Assembly: GCA_036705045.1 (NCBI GenBank) | Contig: JAUBTR010000019.1 | Strand: one strand, 5' to 3' | Length of the DNA: 64,000 nucleotides | Source: Microcoleus sp. BR0-C5 | Lineage (GTDB): Bacteria > Cyanobacteriota > Cyanobacteriia > Cyanobacteriales > Microcoleaceae | In this document: positions 5,522-63,624 of the stretch, in pieces | Layout: each line of letters begins with the position of its first letter | Position numbering within the stretch: the first letter of the stretch is position 1 | Translations under genes and position numbers: made by a program | The notes under the pieces: model-generated | What the model was told of the DNA's origin: nothing | What the model saw: only the letters and a program-made list of their open reading frames with translations | Databases searched by the model: none

Positions 5522-5563
5522 GAACAGGCAAGATGCCTGTTCCACAAAGATGAATTTTCTTTC
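5522..5563. repeat. Copy of a dispersed hairpin element (GAACAGGCAAGATGCCTGTTCCACAA-AGATGAATTTTCTTTC)
   Basis: Same core as at 9107-9227, 19316-19500, 57609-57722 and the intragenic copies in nadE and ureC. Confidence 0.8.
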
Positions 5564-19315: not shown

Positions 19316-19500
19316 CTTGCACCATTGTCAGCAACAGGCAAGATGCCTGTTCCACAACAGATGAATTTTCTTTTTGCACCATTGTCAGCAACAGGCAAGA
19401 TGCCTGTTCCACAACAGATGAATTTTCTTTTTGCACCATTGTCAGCAACAGGCAAGATGCCTGTTCCACAACAGATGAATTTTCTTTCTTGTGGGGAGTA
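19316..19500. repeat. Tandem array of 3 x about 60 bp of the GAACAGGCAAGATGCCTGTTCCACAACAGATGAATTTTCTTT hairpin element
   Basis: Three near-identical direct copies. The overlapping six-frame ORFs (19288-19565) encode repetitive peptides and are artefacts. Confidence 0.9.
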
Positions 19501-52127: not shown

Positions 52128-53981
52128 ATGAAAATTGCGATCGCACAACTCAACCCTACTATTGGTGATATCTTTGGCAACTCCAACCTAATTCTGGAGG
52201 CTGCGAAAAAAGCTGAGGTTGAGGGCGCAAACTTATTGCTAACACCGGAACTTTCCCTGATCGGTTATCCGCCGCGCGATTTGTTAATCAATCCGAGTTT
52301 CATTGCAGATGCAGGTGCACAGTTGCTGCAACTAGCGCAAGCTTTGCCACCGGAGTTGGCACTCATAGTCGGCACTGCCTTACCTAATGCTAATGCTGTT
52401 AAACTCGGCGGAAAATCATTGTTTAATAGCGCTGTTTTGTTGCAAAATGGCGTGGTCAAACAAGTTTTTCATAAACGCTTGTTGCCTACTTATGATGTAT
52501 TTGACGAAGATAGATATTTTGAACCGGGACAAAACAGCCATTATTTTACTATTGGCAAAGTCAAAATCGGCGTGACAATTTGTGAAGATTTGTGGAACAA
52601 TGAGGAGTTTTGGGGTAAACGCAGTTACGCGGGCGATCCTGTTTCCGATTTGGCAAAATTGGGTGTAGATTTAGTGGTGAATTTGTCGGCATCGCCTTAT
52701 TCTGCGGGGAAGCGGGGAGTGCGATCGGCTATGTTGCAGCACAGCGCCATCCGCTGCGGAATACCGATTGTTTACGCTAATCAGGTAGGCGGAAATGACG
52801 ATATTATTTTTGACGGCAGCAGTTTTGCTGTGAATCGAAAGGGTGATTTAATTCAGGTATTGGCTTCTTTTGAAACTGATTTGGCGCTGCTGGAATATGA
52901 CCCAGCTAAACAAGATTTAGTTGGCAGCGGGAACGGGCAAGATGCCCGTTCCACAACAGATTTGGGATTATGTGAAGGACGACAAAAACTAGGTTCGATC
53001 GGCAGTGGCGTTGGCAGCGGCGGGAACGGGCAAGATGCCCGTTCCACAACAGATTTGAGTTTTCATCCGGCAGAAGGAGATGCCGAAATTTGGGCGGCTT
53101 TGGTTTTGGGAGTGCGAGATTATGTTCGCAAGTGCGGTTTTTCTAAGGTTGTACTCGGTTTGAGTGGCGGGATAGATTCGGCTTTGGTGGCTGCGATCGC
53201 CAGTTGCGCGATCGGGGCCGAAAATGTTCTAGGGGTGTTGATGCCTTCTCCTTACAGTTCGGATCATTCTGTTAACGATGCTTTGGAATTAGCCCGAAAT
53301 CTGGGCATCGCGATCGAACTCTTGCCGATCGGCGATTTGATGAAAACTTACGATCGCACTCTAGCCAATTTGTTTGTCAACACAACTTTCGGGATTGCTG
53401 AGGAAAATATTCAATCGCGGATTCGAGGCAATCTGTTGATGGCAATTTCTAACAAGTTCGGACATTTGCTGCTTTCGACGGGCAATAAGTCGGAAATGGC
53501 GGTGGGTTACTGCACTCTCTACGGCGATATGAATGGGGGATTGGCGGTGATTTCCGATGTGCCGAAAACTCGCGTTTATTCGCTTTGTCGGTGGCTGAAT
53601 TCTGGCGGATATGTAGGGGCGGTGCCCCCGTGCCCGCCCTCTCCGTACCCACACCCGTGCCCGCCCCTGGGAAAGGAAATTATTCCGGTTAATATTATTA
53701 GTAAAGCGCCGAGTGCTGAACTGAAACCGGGTCAAATTGACCAAGATTCTTTGCCTGCATACGATGTTTTGGATGACATCTTGTATCGGTTGATAGAACA
53801 TCACGAATCTGCCCAAAAAATTGTCGCTGCAGGACACGATGAAGCGGTGGTTAAACGGGTAGTAAAATTAGTGAGGCAAGCGGAGTTTAAACGGCGGCAA
53901 GCAGCCCCTGGTTTGAAAATTAGCGATCGAGCTTTTGGTACCGGTTGGCGGATGCCGATCGCCAAATCTTCCTTCTATTAA
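52128..53981 (+). CDS. nadE: Glutamine-dependent NAD+ synthetase (CN-hydrolase + NAD synthetase domains), carrying in-frame repeat insertions
   Basis: N-terminal nitrilase-like domain (MKIAIAQLNP...), C-terminal PP-loop SGGIDSA. 617 aa, about 60 aa longer than usual because of the insertions at 52918-53060 and 53624-53672. Confidence 0.85.
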   Translation: MKIAIAQLNPTIGDIFGNSNLILEAAKKAEVEGANLLLTPELSLIGYPPRDLLINPSFIADAGAQLLQLAQALPPELALIVGTALPNANAVKLGGKSLFNSAVLLQNGVVKQVFHKRLLPTYDVFDEDRYFEPGQNSHYFTIGKVKIGVTICEDLWNNEEFWGKRSYAGDPVSDLAKLGVDLVVNLSASPYSAGKRGVRSAMLQHSAIRCGIPIVYANQVGGNDDIIFDGSSFAVNRKGDLIQVLASFETDLALLEYDPAKQDLVGSGNGQDARSTTDLGLCEGRQKLGSIGSGVGSGGNGQDARSTTDLSFHPAEGDAEIWAALVLGVRDYVRKCGFSKVVLGLSGGIDSALVAAIASCAIGAENVLGVLMPSPYSSDHSVNDALELARNLGIAIELLPIGDLMKTYDRTLANLFVNTTFGIAEENIQSRIRGNLLMAISNKFGHLLLSTGNKSEMAVGYCTLYGDMNGGLAVISDVPKTRVYSLCRWLNSGGYVGAVPPCPPSPYPHPCPPLGKEIIPVNIISKAPSAELKPGQIDQDSLPAYDVLDDILYRLIEHHESAQKIVAAGHDEAVVKRVVKLVRQAEFKRRQAAPGLKISDRAFGTGWRMPIAKSSFY

Positions 53982-55092: not shown

Positions 55093-55434
55093 GTGCATCC
55101 AATGAATCCTATTGAATTAAAAATAATCCCCCATCAAACTCAAGACGGTTTAGCTTACCAACATTTGCGCTTGCGAATTACCACTCAAGACGGTATCATC
55201 ACACCCGATGATTTACAAGGTTTGAAACTTCCTCAAGACGTTCAATTAAGCCAAGGAATTGTCATTGAAGGTAGAGGAGCAATTTGGCTCTATGGGTATT
55301 TAGTGCACGAATGTCATCCTGCCGCGTGGGTGGGATGTTACGATCCGCGATTAGAAGGTGCCGTGGTAGTAGCGACGCACAAGCACGAGGTATCAGTTGG
55401 ACAGGTATTAAAATTGAGTTTACCAAGCGATTAA
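55093..55434 (+). CDS. Csx3-like small protein (possible cyclic-oligoadenylate deadenylase/Crn3 family), orphan
   Basis: 113 aa with GRGAIWLYGYLVHECHPAAWVGCYDPRLEGAVVVATH, which I recall as the Csx3 core pattern. No CRISPR array or other cas genes are in the window. Confidence 0.4.
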   Translation: MHPMNPIELKIIPHQTQDGLAYQHLRLRITTQDGIITPDDLQGLKLPQDVQLSQGIVIEGRGAIWLYGYLVHECHPAAWVGCYDPRLEGAVVVATHKHEVSVGQVLKLSLPSD

Positions 55435-55580: not shown

Positions 55581-56913
55581 TCAAGCGGGCTGAAGCCACT
55601 GAGATTCTGCGGACAAAGCAGCTTTAGGTAACACCCAAAGTTTTACTCTCGCTACGGTGGTCAAGCACCGTCTACACAGTCGGTCAAGCTTTACAACTAA
55701 CTTACTGGCTACTTTTCTTAGAATATTGGCAGCGCCGTTTAGATCTGCATTGATTACAGTTCCATCGGCAGAGCGATACAATCCACGTTTAATTCGTTTC
55801 CCAGATGCTTTCCACTCAGGCGGTTTTTCACCGTACTTGGGTAGGGAGTCTCCATCAAGAAAACTACTTTTAGACGTATAGGCTTCTTCTGTTTCAGTGA
55901 ATTTAATGCCGTACAAATTACACAACTGGCTCAGCCGATCTTTTAATTTTCCTAACGGCATCTGAACAAACTTTTGATTATTCAGTTTACCCATATCGAC
56001 ATTGGATTTGAAACCCTGATTCCATCCAATTACTAGATTTCCAATACCATGCTTTAAGCAGTGGGAGACGATTAACTTCGCAGCTTTATTAATTCCATCG
56101 CGCATTTGGTGATTCCGCTTGCGGGTTACGCGGTCTAGCCAGCTATCCCAGTAGCCCGTGGGCTTTCCTTCCTTTCTAGTTGCTATTTTTTTGTTCCAAA
56201 GTTGATTCATCGCTTTCATGGCGCGAGCATCAATCAAAAAGGAATTTCCGAGCGTATCAACGCAAGCTGCTAAATTATCAGCAGTCCCCAAATCGATTGA
56301 TAACGCTTGGCTATAATCTAAAGCGTGCTGCTGACATTCTACTTCGTAAGACATTTCTAAGTAGAAAGCACCATTCTTCGGAAGAATTGTGAATTCTTTA
56401 ACCTTTGAGTAGTCAATGTTTGACGGCATGGGTAGAAAGAATTCAGAAACCCCTGCGCCAGCGCCGTACTGTTAAACCCAGGGAAAATCTCAACTGGTCG
56501 CCGACAAGCGCTGGCTTTAATCCACCAGAATTTGGATAGGCAACTTTAAACAACTTAGAACCTGTTAAATAGCTCGGAGGCTTGGGTCTAAAATGCAATT
56601 GACCTTTGCCGTACAAAGCTTTTAGCTCTTTGAAACTTTTGAACGCTTCTGTTACCGACATCAAGGTTTGCTGCATGGGTGTTGAAGGCAACGACTTGGC
56701 AACCATCGACTTAGAAATTGACGGTTCAAAAGATAAATCAAACTTCCCTGTCAGCAGTTTTCCTGTTTTAAAAAATGTCTGACGAGTAAAATAAACGGCG
56801 CTATTGTATAACTTTCCAGATTGCCGACAGAGATATTGCAACACGGCTTCAACTTCTTTGGTAGGAGACAGTAATACTTGCTGTACTCCCATTGTTTTTT
56901 TGATTCTAGCCAC
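55581..56913 (-). pseudogene. tnpB: IS200/IS605-family tnpB (RNA-guided nuclease lineage), split by a frameshift and lacking zinc-finger cysteines
   Basis: N-terminal part is ORF 56443-56913 and the RuvC part is ORF 55581-56429, in different frames. RuvC motifs are present (IDLG, E, DLNGAANI) but the C-terminal CxxC pairs are absent. No tnpA. A subterminal hairpin GGGGACTTCAGTCCCC lies at about 57075. Confidence 0.6.
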
Positions 56914-57608: not shown

Positions 57609-57722
57609 ATTGCACCATTGTCAATTAGCCTTTTATGAACAGGCAAGATGCCTGTTCCACAAAATATAAATTTTCTTGTGGAACAGGCATCTTGCCTGTT
57701 GCTGAAAATAGTGCAAGATATC
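57609..57722. repeat. Nested palindromic hairpin element (same family as 9107-9227) immediately 3' of ureC
   Basis: ATTGCACCATTGTCA...GAACAGGCAAGATGCCTGTTCCACAAAATATAAATTTTCTTGTGGAACAGGCATCTTGCCTGTT...AGTGCAAGAT. Confidence 0.85.
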
Positions 57723-57724
57723 AG

Positions 57725-59482
57725 TTAAAACAAAAAGTATCGCTGCGCCATTGGCAAAACTGTTGCCGGTTCGCAAGTTAACAATTCCCCATCCGCCCTG
57801 ACTTCATAAGTTTCTGGATCGACTTCCATTTGTGGCAAATAATCGTTTAGTTTCATGTCTCTTTTACTAATTTGTCGTGTCCCGGAAACTGCTACAGTGG
57901 GCTTTTGCAAACCGAGCTGTGCTGCAATACCTCGATCGCGCGCAGCTTGGGAAACAAACGTCAGACAAGTCGCCCCAATCGCCCCGCCAAAACTGCCAAA
58001 CATCGGCCTCATGTGCACTGGTTGCGGCGTAGGAATGCTGGCGTTAGCATCTCCCATCTGCCCATAGGCGATCGCCCCTCCTTTAATTACCAGTTCCGGT
58101 TTCACCCCAAAAAAAGCCGGTCGCCACAAACACAAATCCGCCAATTTTCCCTCTTCCACCGAACCGACATACTGACTAATTCCGTGAGTAATTGCCGGAT
58201 TAATTGTATATTTCGCAATGTACCGCTTCACCCGAAAATTGTCATTTTCTCCCCCTGTGGAACGGGCATCTTGCCCGCCCAAACCCCCTGTGGAACGGGC
58301 ATCTGGTCCGTTCAAATTCCCCCTTTGAACCTTCATTTTATGTGCCGTTTGCCAAGTCCGAATAATCACCTCTCCAACTCTTCCCATCGCCTGAGAATCA
58401 GAAGAAATCATACTAAACGCGCCTAAATCGTGGAGAATATCCTCAGCAGCAATAGTTTCCCTTCTAATTCTCGATTCAGCAAAAGCCACATCTTCAGGAA
58501 TGCCCCGATCCAAATGGTGGCAAACCATCAACATATCTAAATGTTCTTCTAAAGTATTGACAGTGTAAGGGCGAGTCGGGTTAGTTGACGAGGGCAAAAC
58601 ATTAGCTTGACCGCACACTTTAATAATATCCGGCGCGTGTCCGCCGCCAGCACCTTCGGTGTGGTAAGTGTGAATAGCGCGATTTTTAAATGCGGCAATT
58701 GTAGCTTCCACAAATCCCGCTTCATTGAGAGTATCGGTGTGAATTGCAACTTGCACATCGTACTCGTCAGCTACACTCAAACAAGTGTCGATCGTTGCTG
58801 GTGTAGTTCCCCAATCTTCATGGAGTTTCAAACCCATTGCACCGGCAAAGATTTGTTCAATTAATCCTTGGGGTTGACTGCTATTTCCTTTACCTAAAAA
58901 TCCTAGATTTACGGGGAAAGCGTCAGCAGCTTGCAGCATTCGGTACATATGCCAAGGCCCTGGAGTGCAAGTTGTGGCGTTTGTACCCGTTGCCGGGCCA
59001 GTGCCGCCGCCGATCATTGTCGTGATGCCGGAGGCGATCGCCACTTCTATTTGCTGCGGACAAATAAAGTGAATGTGAGTATCAATTCCCCCAGCGGTGA
59101 GAATCATTCCTTCACCGGCAATCACTTCTGTACCGGGCCCGATAATAATATCTACCCTATCTTGAATATAAGGATTTCCGGCTTTACCAATTTTGTAAAT
59201 TTTGCCGTCTTTAATGCCCACATCTGCTTTAACAATTCCCCACCAGTCTAATATTAAAGCATTAGTAATCACCGTGTCAACAGCGCCGTCTGCATTAGAA
59301 ATAGGCGACTGTCCCATGCCGTCGCGAATAACTTTGCCACCGCCAAACTTAACTTCATCCCCGTAGGTTGTGAAGTCTTTTTCAACTTCTATGAATAATT
59401 CTGTATCGGCTAACCGGACGCGATCGCCCACAGTCGGCCCGAAGGTTTCCGCGTAGGCGCGGCGATCCATTCTGTAACTCAT
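57725..59482 (-). CDS. ureC: Urease alpha subunit, with an in-frame repeat insertion
   Basis: Amidohydrolase metal ligands ([13 protein letters not shown], carbamylated-Lys region); 585 aa. The insert [24 protein letters not shown] is encoded by two copies of the GAACGGGCAAGATGCCCGTTCCACA repeat. Confidence 0.9.
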
Positions 59483-59487
59483 ATTAA

Positions 59488-60492
59488 TTAGCTCCTTACT
59501 TGATTTAATTTTCCCACAAACTGGTTCACCTGTTCTTCTGTTTTAAAGAATCCTTCACCAATTGAACCAAAGAAATCATCTTGTGCTATTTCTTGATAGT
59601 TAGGTAACAAATTAGCCAACTCTTCTACATCAATGTTTAAATAGTTTGACAATCTATCTATGTATACCTTAAACTTTAGACCCTCCCTAGGCGTGCTTTC
59701 AGTTAACAAAAGATTGAAAATAACTTGGCTATTTTGACTTGTTCCTCTCAATGCCAGACCTCTTGTTGTTGTATTTATCCAAAATATTTGTGGTATGATT
59801 TCGTTGTAAAGTAGTCTATACACTTTTCCAACTTCCTTGCTCTCTGCTATTTCAATTAATTCTTCCAGGGTCAAGTTGGGCTTTCTTTTTGATATTATAT
59901 TTACAGGTTTAATTTCAGCCTCAATCAAGAATTTTATTGCTAGTAACTCTCTACCACTAGAGTCACAGAAATACTGGAATGTTGCGACATTGATTCTCAC
60001 ACCATAAGTTTCTAATAAGTATTTAATAATCCTTTCAGAACTACTATCTATCTGTGCAGCTACAATTATAATTTTGTGCTGAGCATTCAAAATATCAGGG
60101 AATTCTGAGCTAAATTTCTCACAGAAAGCCTTTTCTAAGTTACTGCCATTTTTAGTCAGTAAATAAGCATTGGCAATTTCTCTAACTCTCTCGTTTGACA
60201 AATCCTTAACCCATGAGGCGTAATCCAAGGCTTGTGCTGTTACTTCTCTTGCTGTTTTGTCCTTCTTTAACTCAACAATGACTAAATCTCCGTTCCTATC
60301 TATACATAAAAGGTCAAGTTGTCCACCATAATCAGTAATCACTTGCCGACCAATTACCAAGAGATCATCTGCTAGGATTGAAATATCATTATCTAGCCAG
60401 GTTTCTAAACGAGATTCTAAGTCTAACTTAGATTGGGTAATTTCCTTCAAGTGAGCCTTTGATATTTTCCACAATCTAATTTGATCGGGCAT
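59488..60492 (-). CDS. PD-(D/E)XK nuclease-like protein (NucS/DUF91-like N-terminal domain) inserted between ureB and ureC
   Basis: [24 protein letters not shown] fits the D...(D/E)xK restriction-endonuclease-like core. The C-terminal about 200 aa are uncharacterised. Confidence 0.35.
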
Positions 60493-60559
60493 ATCGAATT
60501 ATACTCCTACTAATTATTGTTTTTAAGTTCGGCAAAAAAGTCTCTTCCATCTAAAAATC

Positions 60560-60871
60560 TCATTCATCTAATATACCGTTCACTTTTCCATTAAAACCGT
60601 AGACTTGACGACTACCAACAAACGGCACTAATTGAACTTCCCTTTCATCTCCGGGTTCAAACCTGACTGCTGTACCTGCGGGGATATCCAACCGCATTCC
60701 TTTTGCTTGTTCTCGATTAAATTCTAAGGCTTCGTTTGCCTCATAAAAGTGATAGTGGGAACCGATTTGAATGGGTCGATCGCCTTTATTTCCTACCAGC
60801 AACCGCACCGTTGGGCGAGCGGCATTTAATTCTATTTCGCCTGCTGAAACAATCATTTCTCCGGGAATCAT
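60560..60871 (-). CDS. ureB: Urease beta subunit
   Basis: MIPGE...IELNAGR...GSHYHFYE, the classical UreB sequence. Confidence 0.9.
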
Positions 60872-60904: not shown

Positions 60905-61207
60905 TTAACGTATCGGATCGTGGACTGTTACCAACTTAGTTCCATCGGGGAAAGTCGCCTCAACCTGGACTTCATGCACCATTTCTGCTATCCCTTCCAT
61001 CACATCTTCCCGCGTCAGGAGAGTTGTTCCGTAACTCATTAAATCGGCGACGGTGAGGCCATCTCTTGCTCCTTCTAAAATGGCGGCGGAAATGTAAGCT
61101 AGTGCTTCTGGATAGTTTAATTTTAAACCTCTTTGTTTCCGGCGCTCTGCTACCAAGGCAGCGGTGAAAATCAGCAGTTTGTCTTTTTCTTGGGGGGTGA
61201 GTTGCAT
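60905..61207 (-). CDS. ureA: Urease gamma subunit
   Basis: [35 protein letters not shown], the classical UreA sequence. Confidence 0.9.
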
Positions 61208-61369: not shown

Positions 61370-62245
61370 CTATTTTATCCAAACTCTGGGCAAACAGCAA
61401 GGGCGTTCTGAAAAAGATAAGCGCAGCAAGTGCCAAATGTTGACAAACCAGTCTCTAGCTGCGGTTGTCGATGTACCGCGATATCGGCACAGCAAACCGT
61501 TAGGAATACGAGTCACGCCGACGGTGGAATTACCAGGATAAATTGTTGCCTCACAAGGCAAATCTCGCACTTTTTCCACGATTTCTGTGGTTACGGGTTC
61601 GCCTACCCAAGCGAGGGTGGCGACTACGGGTTTTCCTGCGAGACCGTGAGGACTTTCGAGCATTTTTTCTCCACCTTTTAGCAATTGTCTGTCAATCCAT
61701 AAAGGGCTATTTTGTTGCCAGACTTCGGTGTGCGATCGCCATTCTCCAAACAAAAACTTTTCGCCCCTAGCACTGCGTCCAAATCGGGTAATTTCCCACA
61801 GTAAAATCCTCGCTGTTGGTGCTAATTCTACCCGCAAATTTTGCCGATATATTGCGCCGTCAAAAACTATAGTTTCCTGTGGTAGCCATTCTACATTAGC
61901 ACCGGGTTCTAGTTTGATGTCAATATTTTGTTGTGATTCTAGTCCGCTGCTGCGATAGATTTTACCAGCGGCAGCCGTGGTAATCAAGACTTTGGCGTTG
62001 GGTTGGAGGTGAAAATGGCTGGAAAGTCGATCGCCCCCGACAACTCCCCCAGCCGTGTGCAAGATGACGCTGTGACAAACGTCTTTCCCTTCAGGATAAA
62101 ACGGACGCTGCACCTTTAGGGGCGCTTGCATTTGATTGTGAATGATTTGAGTTGAGCCGCTGCGGTTAGCGTAGACTAAATTGAGGTAGCCGTGCCATCC
62201 ATTTTCAACTTGATCTATATGTTGTTTGGTCAAATTTTCAGTCAC
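61370..62245 (-). CDS. ureD: Urease accessory protein UreD/UreH
   Basis: About 290 aa, positioned upstream of ureA on the same strand; UreD-like composition. Confidence 0.7.
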   Translation of the reverse strand: MTENLTKQHIDQVENGWHGYLNLVYANRSGSTQIIHNQMQAPLKVQRPFYPEGKDVCHSVILHTAGGVVGGDRLSSHFHLQPNAKVLITTAAAGKIYRSSGLESQQNIDIKLEPGANVEWLPQETIVFDGAIYRQNLRVELAPTARILLWEITRFGRSARGEKFLFGEWRSHTEVWQQNSPLWIDRQLLKGGEKMLESPHGLAGKPVVATLAWVGEPVTTEIVEKVRDLPCEATIYPGNSTVGVTRIPNGLLCRYRGTSTTAARDWFVNIWHLLRLSFSERPCCLPRVWIK

Positions 62246-62439: not shown

Positions 62440-63624
62440 GTGCAGAATATGCCTCAAGTTCTCTTCAAAGTTGACTTGACCAAACCGATGTCTGAACAGG
62501 AATTAGTCGGTCACAATCGCTGGCATCCAGATATTCCAGCAGTAGTTTCCGTCAATCCCGGCGATGTATTTCGCATCGAGTGCAAAGACTGGACAGACGG
62601 ACAAATTAAAAATGACGACAGTCCCGACGACATTCGCGATGTAGACTTAACAGTAGTTCACGTTTTGAGCGGGCCAATTTACGTTAACGGCGCGCAGCCA
62701 GGGGATATTTTAGTAGTCGATATCCTCGATATCGGGGCTTTGCAAGGGGATGAATGGGGTTTTACGGGAATTTTTGCTAAAGAAAACGGTGGCGGTTTCT
62801 TGACCGAACATTTTCCGACTGCTGCTAAAGCAATTTGGGATTTTCAGGGAATTTATACCGCTTCCCGACACATACCAAAAGTCAGGTTTGCTGGGATTAC
62901 TCATCCGGGTTTAATCGGCTGCGCTCCTTCTCAGGAATTGTTGAATAAATGGAACAAACGGGAAGCGGAATTAGTAGCAACAGATCCCGATCGAGTGCCG
63001 CCTTTAGCAGCACTGCCGAACCCCAAAAATGCTGTTTTGGGGTCGCTGCAAGGGGCAGAATTCGATCGAGTTGCGGCAGAAGCGGCGCGCACTGTTCCTC
63101 CCCGCGAACACGGCGGCAATTGCGATATTAAAAACCTGTCGCGGGGTTCGAGAATTTACTTCCCGGTTTATGTCGAAGGCGCGAAACTTTCGATGGGAGA
63201 TATTCACTTTTCTCAAGGAGACGGGGAAATTTCATTCTGCGGGGCAATTGAAATGTCGGGGTACATTGACCTCCACGTTGATATTATCAAAGGTGGGATG
63301 GATAAATACGCGATGGTCAACCCGATTTTCAAACCCGGGCCGGTGGAACCCCGCTATTCTGAGTACCTCGTTTTTGAAGGGATTTCTGTTGATGAATTTA
63401 CGGGTCAGCAGTATTATATGGATGCCCACGTTGCTTATCGCCGAGCTTGTTTGAATGCGATCGAATATTTGAAAAAGTTTGGTTTTACCGGAGAACAAGC
63501 GTATTTGCTCTTAAGTTGTGCTCCGGTTGAGGGTCGCATCAGCGGCATTGTGGATATTCCCAATGCTTGCTGCACGATTGCTTTACCGACAGAAATTTTC
63601 CAGATGGATATTCTGCCATCTTAA
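62440..63624 (+). CDS. Formamidase (FmdA/AmdA acetamidase-formamidase family)
   Basis: N-terminus KVDLTKP...HNRWHPDIP...NDDSPDDIRDVDL...VHVLSGP closely parallels characterised formamidases. Confidence 0.85.
   Translation: MQNMPQVLFKVDLTKPMSEQELVGHNRWHPDIPAVVSVNPGDVFRIECKDWTDGQIKNDDSPDDIRDVDLTVVHVLSGPIYVNGAQPGDILVVDILDIGALQGDEWGFTGIFAKENGGGFLTEHFPTAAKAIWDFQGIYTASRHIPKVRFAGITHPGLIGCAPSQELLNKWNKREAELVATDPDRVPPLAALPNPKNAVLGSLQGAEFDRVAAEAARTVPPREHGGNCDIKNLSRGSRIYFPVYVEGAKLSMGDIHFSQGDGEISFCGAIEMSGYIDLHVDIIKGGMDKYAMVNPIFKPGPVEPRYSEYLVFEGISVDEFTGQQYYMDAHVAYRRACLNAIEYLKKFGFTGEQAYLLLSCAPVEGRISGIVDIPNACCTIALPTEIFQMDILPS

Follow-up and report, generated by a model that had tools for sequence, protein, structure and literature searches.

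A predicted NucS-type nuclease gene between ureB and ureC of Microcoleus: probably a defence gene carried in a variable slot of the urease operon

MdgA (modification defence gene A) is a single-gene antiphage nuclease that combines NucS with DUF4268 (bioRxiv 10.1101/2025.02.28.640651). It is both necessary and sufficient for defence against T4 but not against the unmodified T4-GT7. It degrades modified T4 DNA in vitro and is inactivated by the substitution E77A, for which the mutagenic primer encodes VIV(E>A)NKLDD (bioRxiv 10.1101/2025.02.28.640651). Here we describe X, our name for a 334-amino-acid (aa) open reading frame (ORF) that lies between ureB and ureC in a 64,000-nucleotide (nt) stretch of Microcoleus sp. 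BR0-C5, hereafter the window. Like MdgA, X is a single ORF of similar size with an N-terminal NucS-type module, a C-terminal accessory domain and no methyltransferase partner, and the two share the same glutamate of the E-x-K motif (E77 in VIVENKLDD of MdgA, E74 in VIVELKKDK of X). X differs from MdgA in that its C-terminal module is not detectably DUF4268 and in that it sits in a metabolic operon. The comparison was made through a protein from an E. coli plasmid that is built in the same way. We read X as an accessory, probably defensive, stand-alone DNA endonuclease in a cargo slot of the urease operon, where it would be co-expressed with urease, and we put the probability of this reading at roughly 55%.

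Several other described systems resemble X in part. NucS/EndoMS (2vld, 5gke) shares the nuclease-domain fold and the catalytic residues; in X, however, the domain order is reversed, there is an extra C-terminal module, and the distribution is accessory and not core. The candidate PDC-S11 in PADLOC matches X over the N-terminal half and is likewise a single-gene system with a patchy distribution, whereas the C-terminal half differs. Shedu SduA (8ps5) belongs to the same broad PD-(D/E)XK fold class and is a stand-alone defence protein with variable accessory domains, but it has its nuclease domain at the C-terminus, as the Pfam name SduA_C indicates, and X falls below the cut-off of that model. 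The locus also recalls embedded defence genes, such as inserts in type I restriction–modification (R-M) operons, the PADLOC HEC candidates and hotspots flanked by core genes, in which a variable slot holds alternative defence candidates or nothing. Here, in contrast, the flanks are structural subunits of one metabolic enzyme, and the 3′ end of the cargo now serves as the downstream ribosome-binding site (RBS). Free-standing homing endonuclease genes, for example phage T4 mobE between nrdA and nrdB or the gene of the PD-(D/E)XK homing enzyme I-Ssp6803I, are nuclease genes lodged between very conserved genes too, with presence/absence polymorphism and, in some comparisons, lower divergence than their flanks; most members of the X family, however, lie off conserved sites, and the empty alleles that we call type 1 are deletion scars. 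The protein family and the embedding of defence genes are already known, and we found no paper in the literature describing a NucS-like nuclease in ure operons. The ure-specific clade, the turnover of the slot (X, HEC-01, or empty with a scar) and the use of the 3′ codons of X as the RBS of ureC appear to be new.

The predicted protein consists of two modules joined by a linker (window coordinates):

59488..60492, minus strand: gene X, an ATG-initiated ORF of 334 aa (stop codon included) predicted to encode a two-module NucS-like nuclease
59923..60492, minus strand: N-module, residues 1–190, a PD-(D/E)XK domain with a helical insert at 100–127 and a C-terminal beta-alpha-beta-beta extension in the AlphaFold2 model
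60220..60315, minus strand: catalytic signature D60 ... E74-x-K76 ... Q87 ... Y91, from the homologue alignment
59884..59922, minus strand: inter-module linker, residues 191–203, disordered, gappy and variable in the alignment
59491..59883, minus strand: C-module, residues 204–334, an alpha/beta domain belonging to no Pfam family, a putative DNA- or target-recognition module

Pfam NucS_C (PF01939) matched residues 26–119 of X at 25.6 bits against a gathering score of 24, and at 27.0 bits when the N-terminal half was searched alone. The five signature residues D60, E74, K76, Q87 and Y91 were invariant in an alignment of 27 homologues with 49–97% identity. A profile of that alignment matched NucS of P. 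abyssi (2vld), with X residues 57–107 aligned to NucS residues 156–206, the catalytic block; by our reading of this alignment, the NucS catalytic residues are numbered D160/E174/K176/Q187/Y191. AlphaFold2 predicted X with a predicted local distance difference test (pLDDT) score of 84.5, as two modules spanning residues 1–190 and 209–334. The N-module scored about 85–93 and contains the alpha-beta-beta-beta-alpha-beta core (helix 25–35, strands 44–52, 58–65 and 70–75, helix 81–96, strand 139–145). The nearest structures according to Foldseek were NucS 2vld (E = 1e-4), EndoMS 5gke, Shedu SduA 8ps5 (E = 7e-3) and Nt.BspD6I, with a probability of 1.00 for 2vld and 5gke. We are therefore highly confident that X belongs to the NucS-type PD-(D/E)XK nuclease family, and its nuclease activity is predicted from sequence and fold. 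A prediction made earlier from the DNA letters (hereafter the original prediction) had proposed a NucS/DUF91-like nuclease core in the first ~110 aa, and Pfam, profile, fold and catalytic residues all agree with it; the motif that it quoted corresponds to residues 56–79. Structure prediction of both halves, which it had recommended, returned a nuclease fold for the N-module and a C-module that is confidently folded alone.

A Shedu identity was rejected. Pfam SduA_C (DUF4263) scored 13.2–14.7 bits against a cut-off of 27, and no Shedu model was among the 11 PADLOC families listed for X at E ≤ 1. Pfam and NCBIfam matches revealed no similarity of X to ure families, UreD/E/F/G included.

The linker had pLDDT values below 50 at residues 192–203. 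Modeled alone, the C-module reached a pLDDT of 90.3 and a predicted template modeling (pTM) score of 0.86. It had no Pfam match even at E ≤ 10, and Foldseek found nothing significant for it in the PDB. A DUF4268 (PF14088) identity has no support at the sequence level, with no Pfam match and, when compared with a protein that carries this domain, an hhalign probability of 0.3%. Among 50%-identity cluster representatives, many relatives of X cease to match at about residue 195 and then continue into a different C-terminus, so the N-module is the only portion common to X, many family members, the plasmid DUF91/DUF4268 proteins described below and the PDC-S11 hidden Markov model (HMM). Judged from these alignments, the C-terminal module is swapped among family members. 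Given its weak fold resemblance and its position in the architecture, the C-module is most likely a DNA-target recognition module. The original prediction had called the remainder of the protein unassigned, which holds as far as Pfam families are concerned but misses that this part is a separate, well-folded module. With X, the family of NucS-type single-gene nucleases gains a distinct C-terminal module.

At E ≤ 1e-3 we found 3309 homologues of X, the best being a 97% identical Microcoleus protein named 'DUF91 domain-containing protein'. The 50%-identity cluster representatives included 3596 matches at E ≤ 1e-3 and 342 at E ≤ 1e-30. By the measure of these homologue numbers, the NucS_C score above gathering and a ratio of non-synonymous to synonymous differences (pN/pS) of 0.17–0.49 over long range, X is a genuine, intact gene; the frame did not arise by chance. 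The ORF has no named non-nuclease function.

Full-length relatives at 39–55% identity occur in Methanothrix, Thermoplasmata, Bathyarchaeia, Chloroflexota, Candidate Phyla Radiation bacteria, Acidobacteriota and others, so that the family is patchily distributed across bacteria and archaea, in unrelated neighborhoods. The PADLOC HMM PDLC04916 of PDC-S11 matched X residues 1–200 at E = 4.8e-68, over HMM positions 1–194 of 358, leaving the C-module unmatched; four further PDC-S11 HMMs matched more weakly. The sole functional hint that we found for PDC-S11 is a correlation in haloarchaea. The N-module was present on 343 plasmid records, mostly enterobacterial and annotated as DUF91 or DUF4268. E. 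coli plasmid CP058032 encodes, with hsdS on one side and hsdR on the other, a 387-aa relative that has DUF4268 at 238–372 and matches X over residues 9–254 (27% identity, E = 1e-17). A relative encoded by a Deinococcus plasmid is flanked by an SNF2 gene and by type I R-M genes. Occurrence on phages was considered and rejected, as just 1 of 50,697 phage records contained an N-module match, and that one was weak. The 107 ORFs flanking homologues at 62 loci outside ure operons yielded no constant partner gene. Few of them were of defence type: 3 methyltransferases, plus NurA, DUF433 and AbiEii-like ATPases. A classical type II R-M system does not fit either, since the neighbors of ure-linked copies on both sides are ure genes or other cargo and methyltransferases make up 3 of 107 flanking ORFs at non-ure loci.

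The ORF list places X between ureB and ureC, on their strand and 5 bp from ureC, as the original prediction had it. The surrounding features are as follows:

61370..62245, minus strand: ureD, an ORF upstream of X
60905..61207, minus strand: ureA, an ORF upstream of X
60560..60871, minus strand: ureB, urease beta subunit, the left flank of the slot (Pfam Urease_beta in the orthologous locus L001)
60493..60559, minus strand: ureB–X intergenic region of 67 nt, with GGAG 11 nt ahead of the X ATG and a promoter-like TTAAAA-17-TATAAT
59492..59497, minus strand: Shine-Dalgarno sequence AAGGAG of ureC, formed by the closing Arg-Ser codons of X and read from the sequence
59483..59487, minus strand: 5-nt spacer TTAAT between the X stop codon and the ureC ATG
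57725..59482, minus strand: ureC, urease alpha subunit, the right flank of the slot (Pfam Urease_alpha/Amidohydro_1 in L001)

Exact-protein look-ups placed homologues of X between ureB and ureC in another Microcoleus (L001), Phormidium nigroviride (L002), Kamptonema (L003/L004), Nostoc PCC 7524 (L005), Phormidium sp. R1S1 (L006) and a Phormidesmis metagenome-assembled genome (MAG) (L007). A genome scan added Microcoleus, Tychonema, Kamptonema, lichen-type Nostoc, Desmonostoc, Calothrix and a Leptolyngbyaceae MAG, which brought the ure-linked loci fetched to 25, all 25 with an intact X frame. None of the 62 non-ure loci, seven other cyanobacterial copies included, was ure-linked. In a neighbor-joining tree, the ure-linked copies formed one clade whose inner order was roughly taxonomic. 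The guanine-plus-cytosine (GC) content of X was 0.33–0.37 in the window, where the ure genes have 0.44–0.52, and 0.30–0.39 against 0.44–0.53 for ureC across every ure-linked lineage. Since the gap recurs in all of them, it is a long-standing trait and does not mark X as a newcomer. The recent one-off insertion that the low GC content might suggest is thus rejected, the clade being old.

According to a review, ureDAB and ureC of Nostoc PCC 7120 are parted by a gene called unknown (PMC6737895). That it might be X is not supported, as no PCC 7120 protein was among the 120 best matches to X of Nostoc PCC 7524. Going by these matches, the gene is probably not an X orthologue; it may be a different cargo, in line with a variable slot. 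We found nothing in the literature on alr3669.

Operons nearly identical to that of the window were collected in a metagenome scan with UreB (UreA 95–100% and UreC 90–99% identical to the window). Their slots contained X in L090, a gap of 54–70 nt in L091–L093, a gap of 96–97 nt in L095–L100 and a GT61 glycosyltransferase gene in L094. In the Microcoleus-like metagenome contigs L088 (2909–4785) and L089 (404–2283), X is replaced by a 2.05-kb insert encoding an AAA_21/AAA_15 ATPase and a DUF4276 protein, which match PADLOC HEC-01A/B at E = 5e-61 and 8e-14. More distant cyanobacterial operons have Coq4-like, cupin or DUF1349 genes in the slot, and in L006 and L007 a Coq4/DUF1349 or glutathione S-transferase gene stands upstream of X. 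Most of the bacterial ure loci we fetched lack X and have a ureB–ureC gap of 3–90 nt, and X is missing from intact ureABC clusters of close relatives. The original prediction had called a nuclease-like protein among urease genes unexpected and had suggested looking at the ure operons of relatives. Seen against them, X is not a unique event but a recurrent occupant of the ureB–ureC slot, present, absent or replaced among close relatives.

A tree of the ureB and ureC flanks, which left out L091, nested the HEC-01 loci and the empty L092 and L093 inside the X-bearing Microcoleus clade. Empty sites without any remnant of X (type 2) formed the sister group of the X-bearing Microcoleus/Tychonema group, with X-bearing Kamptonema outside. 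This placement implies at least three losses or replacements of X. As natural operons have lost it, X is, on this genomic comparison, dispensable for urease, and we are fairly confident that it is cargo and not a urease component. A core metabolic operon can thus offer defence-type genes a slot whose content varies.

A 17-nt tandem duplication (2.1 copies, window 60536–60571) spans the stop codon of ureB. It is found in the window, L001, L008 and L090, not in Tychonema or Kamptonema, and possibly marks a past recombination event at the left boundary of the slot. A second cargo slot occurs between ureD and ureA, where a toxin-antitoxin-type MNT/HepT pair lies in L002 (3617–4313) and L003/L004 (3657–4311).

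The end of X is tied to the start of ureC. In the window, X stops at a TAA (59488–59490) and the ureC ATG begins at 59482, so that the junction reads GTA AGG AGC TAA ttaat ATG. In Tychonema, Kamptonema, P. nigroviride, Phormidium R1S1 and Nostoc, the TGA of X overlaps the ATG of ureC (ATGA) and the protein ends in ...KLNE(V/M/A/Y)RS... The 5-nt gap in the window, L001, L008 and L090 arises because their TAA comes three codons earlier. AGG AGY (Arg-Ser) forms the ureC Shine-Dalgarno sequence in most of the X-bearing lineages examined; the exception is Phormidesmis L007, which also has the ATGA overlap but ends in ...KLNQLGKEL and lacks the AGG AGY codons. From the overlap or short gap and the Shine-Dalgarno sequence inside X, translational coupling of X to ureC can be predicted. 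Co-transcription with the ure genes is probable. There were no terminator-like sites on the minus strand in the ureB–X and X–ureC gaps, in a terminator scan at background level, and the promoter-like site at 60526..60498 has no statistical weight (13 sites found in the promoter scan against 10 expected). For urease engineering or knockout in cyanobacteria, this arrangement means that a careless deletion of X takes out the RBS of ureC. It is also a natural example of an accessory gene that has become entangled with host gene expression.

Some slots that lack X still carry its end. The empty L091 and L092 read N-E-V-R-S-stop in the X frame and L093 reads M-R-S-stop, while the HEC-01 loci read N-L-M-R-S-A-L-K-stop before ureC, almost the same as the end of X in P. 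nigroviride. Because the ending LNxxR(S) belongs to the protein family itself, these leftovers are remnants of X and not a pre-existing leader. To judge from these sequences, X was ancestral in the type-1 empty and HEC-01 operons and was later deleted or replaced. Its last 5–8 codons survive because they are the RBS of ureC.

Across distant pairs, pN/pS was 0.17–0.26 for the N-module and 0.21–0.49 for the C-module, which indicates that the protein has been maintained by long-term purifying selection. Divergence of X and its flanks was compared in the window, L001, L008–L013, L003, L014 and L019/L020. Among Microcoleus/Tychonema strains, the synonymous divergence of X was 2–6 times below that of ureC and lower still relative to that of ureB (Fisher p for synonymous differences in X versus the flanks, 7e-4 to 5e-11). 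In several strain pairs, X had higher non-synonymous but lower synonymous divergence than the flanks. Between the window and L008, 4 of 89 four-fold sites differed in X versus 69 of 267 in ureC. The same deficit appeared between Microcoleus and Kamptonema (0.23 versus about 0.5) and in one close Nostoc pair, but not within Kamptonema or between distant Nostoc. Low GC content at third codon positions does not explain it, as that of ureB is similar and yet its four-fold divergence is the highest. The window and L001 show a mosaic of identity, with 97–100% over X and the first ~150 nt of ureC and 86–90% in ureB. The simplest reading of the low synonymous divergence is that homologous recombination in the conserved flanks has recently exchanged X alleles; homing-like drive and selection on silent sites are other possible causes.

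We propose that the X gene moved into the ureB–ureC slot a single time, in an ancestor shared by several lineages of filamentous cyanobacteria, and would since then have been kept, lost, replaced (for example by the HEC-01 ATPase/DUF4276 pair) and probably re-exchanged by homologous recombination. X would be expressed from the ure transcript and coupled in translation to ureC, the C-module would pick the DNA target and the NucS-type module would cut it. By analogy with MdgA, the target could be a feature of foreign DNA such as a base modification, possibly in a type IV-like manner, although cleavage that depends on modification is, for X, a doubtful proposition at present. A nuclease gene embedded in cyanobacterial urease clusters thereby gains an identity and a testable mechanism. 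A role in defence is somewhat favored, because there is no methyltransferase partner, relatives are found on plasmids and next to R-M genes, modules are swapped, the distribution across the two domains of life is patchy, HEC-01 can take the place of X, and MdgA provides a precedent. Several points weigh against this reading. X and all of its ure-linked relatives are known as genes and models alone, and co-transcription with the ure genes is deduced from their layout. PDC-S11 is a computational candidate class, and its HMM is covered over just 54% of its length. Recognizable defence genes are rare beside the non-ure homologues. One clade held at one operon position across deep lineages is unusual for defence genes, which turn over fast. 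Finally, pN/pS among Microcoleus/Tychonema strains is about 0.5–1.05, which could reflect relaxed constraint.

The original prediction had offered a selfish insertion, a regulatory protein that binds DNA or RNA, or a domesticated nuclease. Accessory cargo, selfish-like or defensive, is what the data favor among these options, and a role required by urease is the part that fell, since natural operons have lost X.

A selfish nuclease of the homing type would cut ureB–ureC junctions that lack X and be copied in by recombinational repair, as in intronless homing. Such an explanation accounts for an occupancy that is polymorphic at one exact site between highly conserved genes, for the single clade of ure-linked copies and for the persistently higher AT content of X relative to its flanks. 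It also accords with the 2–6-fold lower synonymous divergence relative to ureB and ureC, as if alleles of X coalesced more recently than the flanks, and with tracts of high identity that extend from X into the first ~150 nt of ureC. We nevertheless regard it as unlikely. Most family members, other cyanobacterial copies included, lie in unrelated, non-conserved contexts. The type-1 empty sites are deletion derivatives with the 3′ end of X and not naive targets, and in Kamptonema and distant Nostoc pairs the divergence of X is on a par with that of its flanks, as would fit vertical descent. Long-term purifying selection acts over the whole protein, and sequence-specific cleavage of the empty allele is conjecture. 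In a similarly unlikely form of the idea, X would be an operon-lodged selfish nuclease that spreads by homing or recombination with ureB and ureC as homology arms, its supply of the ureC RBS hindering deletion (positional addiction). If so, the urease operon of filamentous cyanobacteria would be an exchange hotspot for defence cassettes (X, HEC-01, MNT/HepT) riding on the transcription of nitrogen metabolism.

Domestication of X for urease or nitrogen metabolism, whether as a DNA- or RNA-binding regulator, a processor of the ure transcript or a factor for repair under urea or ammonia stress, would fit a protein under purifying selection that has kept one operon position in several deep lineages, with a stop/start overlap with ureC. 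We consider it quite improbable, however, as near-identical Microcoleus-like operons have no X or have HEC-01 with ureA, ureB and ureC intact, unrelated genes fill the slot in other cyanobacteria, homologues outside the ure clade are never ure-linked, and the catalytic residues of a DNA nuclease are invariant.

There is very little to recommend X as a housekeeping repair endonuclease of the NucS/EndoMS kind, acting on mismatched or branched DNA, even though its best sequence and fold matches are to the nuclease domain of these enzymes, with the same catalytic residues. Orthology was rejected on the NCBIfam equivalogs NF003270 and NF002876, which scored 28.1 and 20.4 bits against cut-offs of 216 and 252 and aligned to the nuclease stretch only. 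The nuclease of X is N-terminal, starting at about residue 26, with the extra domain following it; Pfam found no NucS_N match for the N-terminal domain of NucS. The distribution is patchy and strain-variable, and no clamp-binding peptide was seen by eye at the end of X (...KLNQVRS), where no motif scan was made.

The idea that the window copy is an inert passenger whose frame stays open solely because a nonsense mutation would interfere with ureC translation would suit the pN/pS of 0.5–1.05 within Microcoleus/Tychonema, the slightly earlier stop of the window allele and the repeated loss of X in relatives, but is highly improbable given the invariance of the catalytic and many structural residues, the low long-range pN/pS (0.17–0.49) and the frame kept open in all 25 ure-linked loci.

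The ureC gene itself contains an in-frame insert (window 58219–58309, minus strand) with two short-repeat copies, GPDARSTGG and GQDARSTGG, between the conserved QRGNL and NDNF. UreC of relatives has other repeat-derived inserts at the same point (PPLTPPYQGGET, 1–3 copies) and a length of 579–603 aa, and UreC of Nostoc PCC 7524 has no such insert and is 569 aa long. This point in an enzyme gene has the look of a hotspot for small dispersed repeats. The 20-mer GGCAAGATGCCYGTTCCACA, which belongs to the same element as this insert, occurs 11 times in the window against 0.01 expected, at 57626–57712 just past the ureC stop codon and also at 5527, 5607, 19337–19470 and 52936–53048. Just beyond ureC, two inverted copies make a perfect 27-bp hairpin (RNA fold −62 kcal/mol, z = −11), a possible terminator. 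Rfam miRNA-precursor models matched this hairpin below threshold.

The sole Rfam match above threshold in the region was 5_ureB_sRNA (RF02514) at 59041–59327 on the plus strand, antisense to the 5′ part of ureC (108 bits versus a gathering score of 40). This family is a Helicobacter antisense RNA to the gene of the large urease subunit. We do not count the match as a structured RNA; it most likely reflects conservation of the ureC coding sequence and not a cyanobacterial small RNA.

Divergent from ureD is a formamidase/acetamidase gene (FmdA_AmdA, E = 4e-194; window 62440–63624, plus strand). It is also the neighbor in Kamptonema and P. nigroviride, and an MmeI-type R-M gene is found there instead in the closest Microcoleus genome, L001. 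On the other side of the urease genes, the window contains a stand-alone Csx3 gene (55093–55434, plus strand; Pfam Cas_csx3, E = 3e-34). Beside it lies a TnpB/OrfB_IS605-like gene in two parts (55581–56429 and 56443–56913, minus strand), a 282-aa RuvC/TNB part being separate from a 156-aa upstream ORF; from this arrangement of frames, it is probably a frameshifted TnpB.

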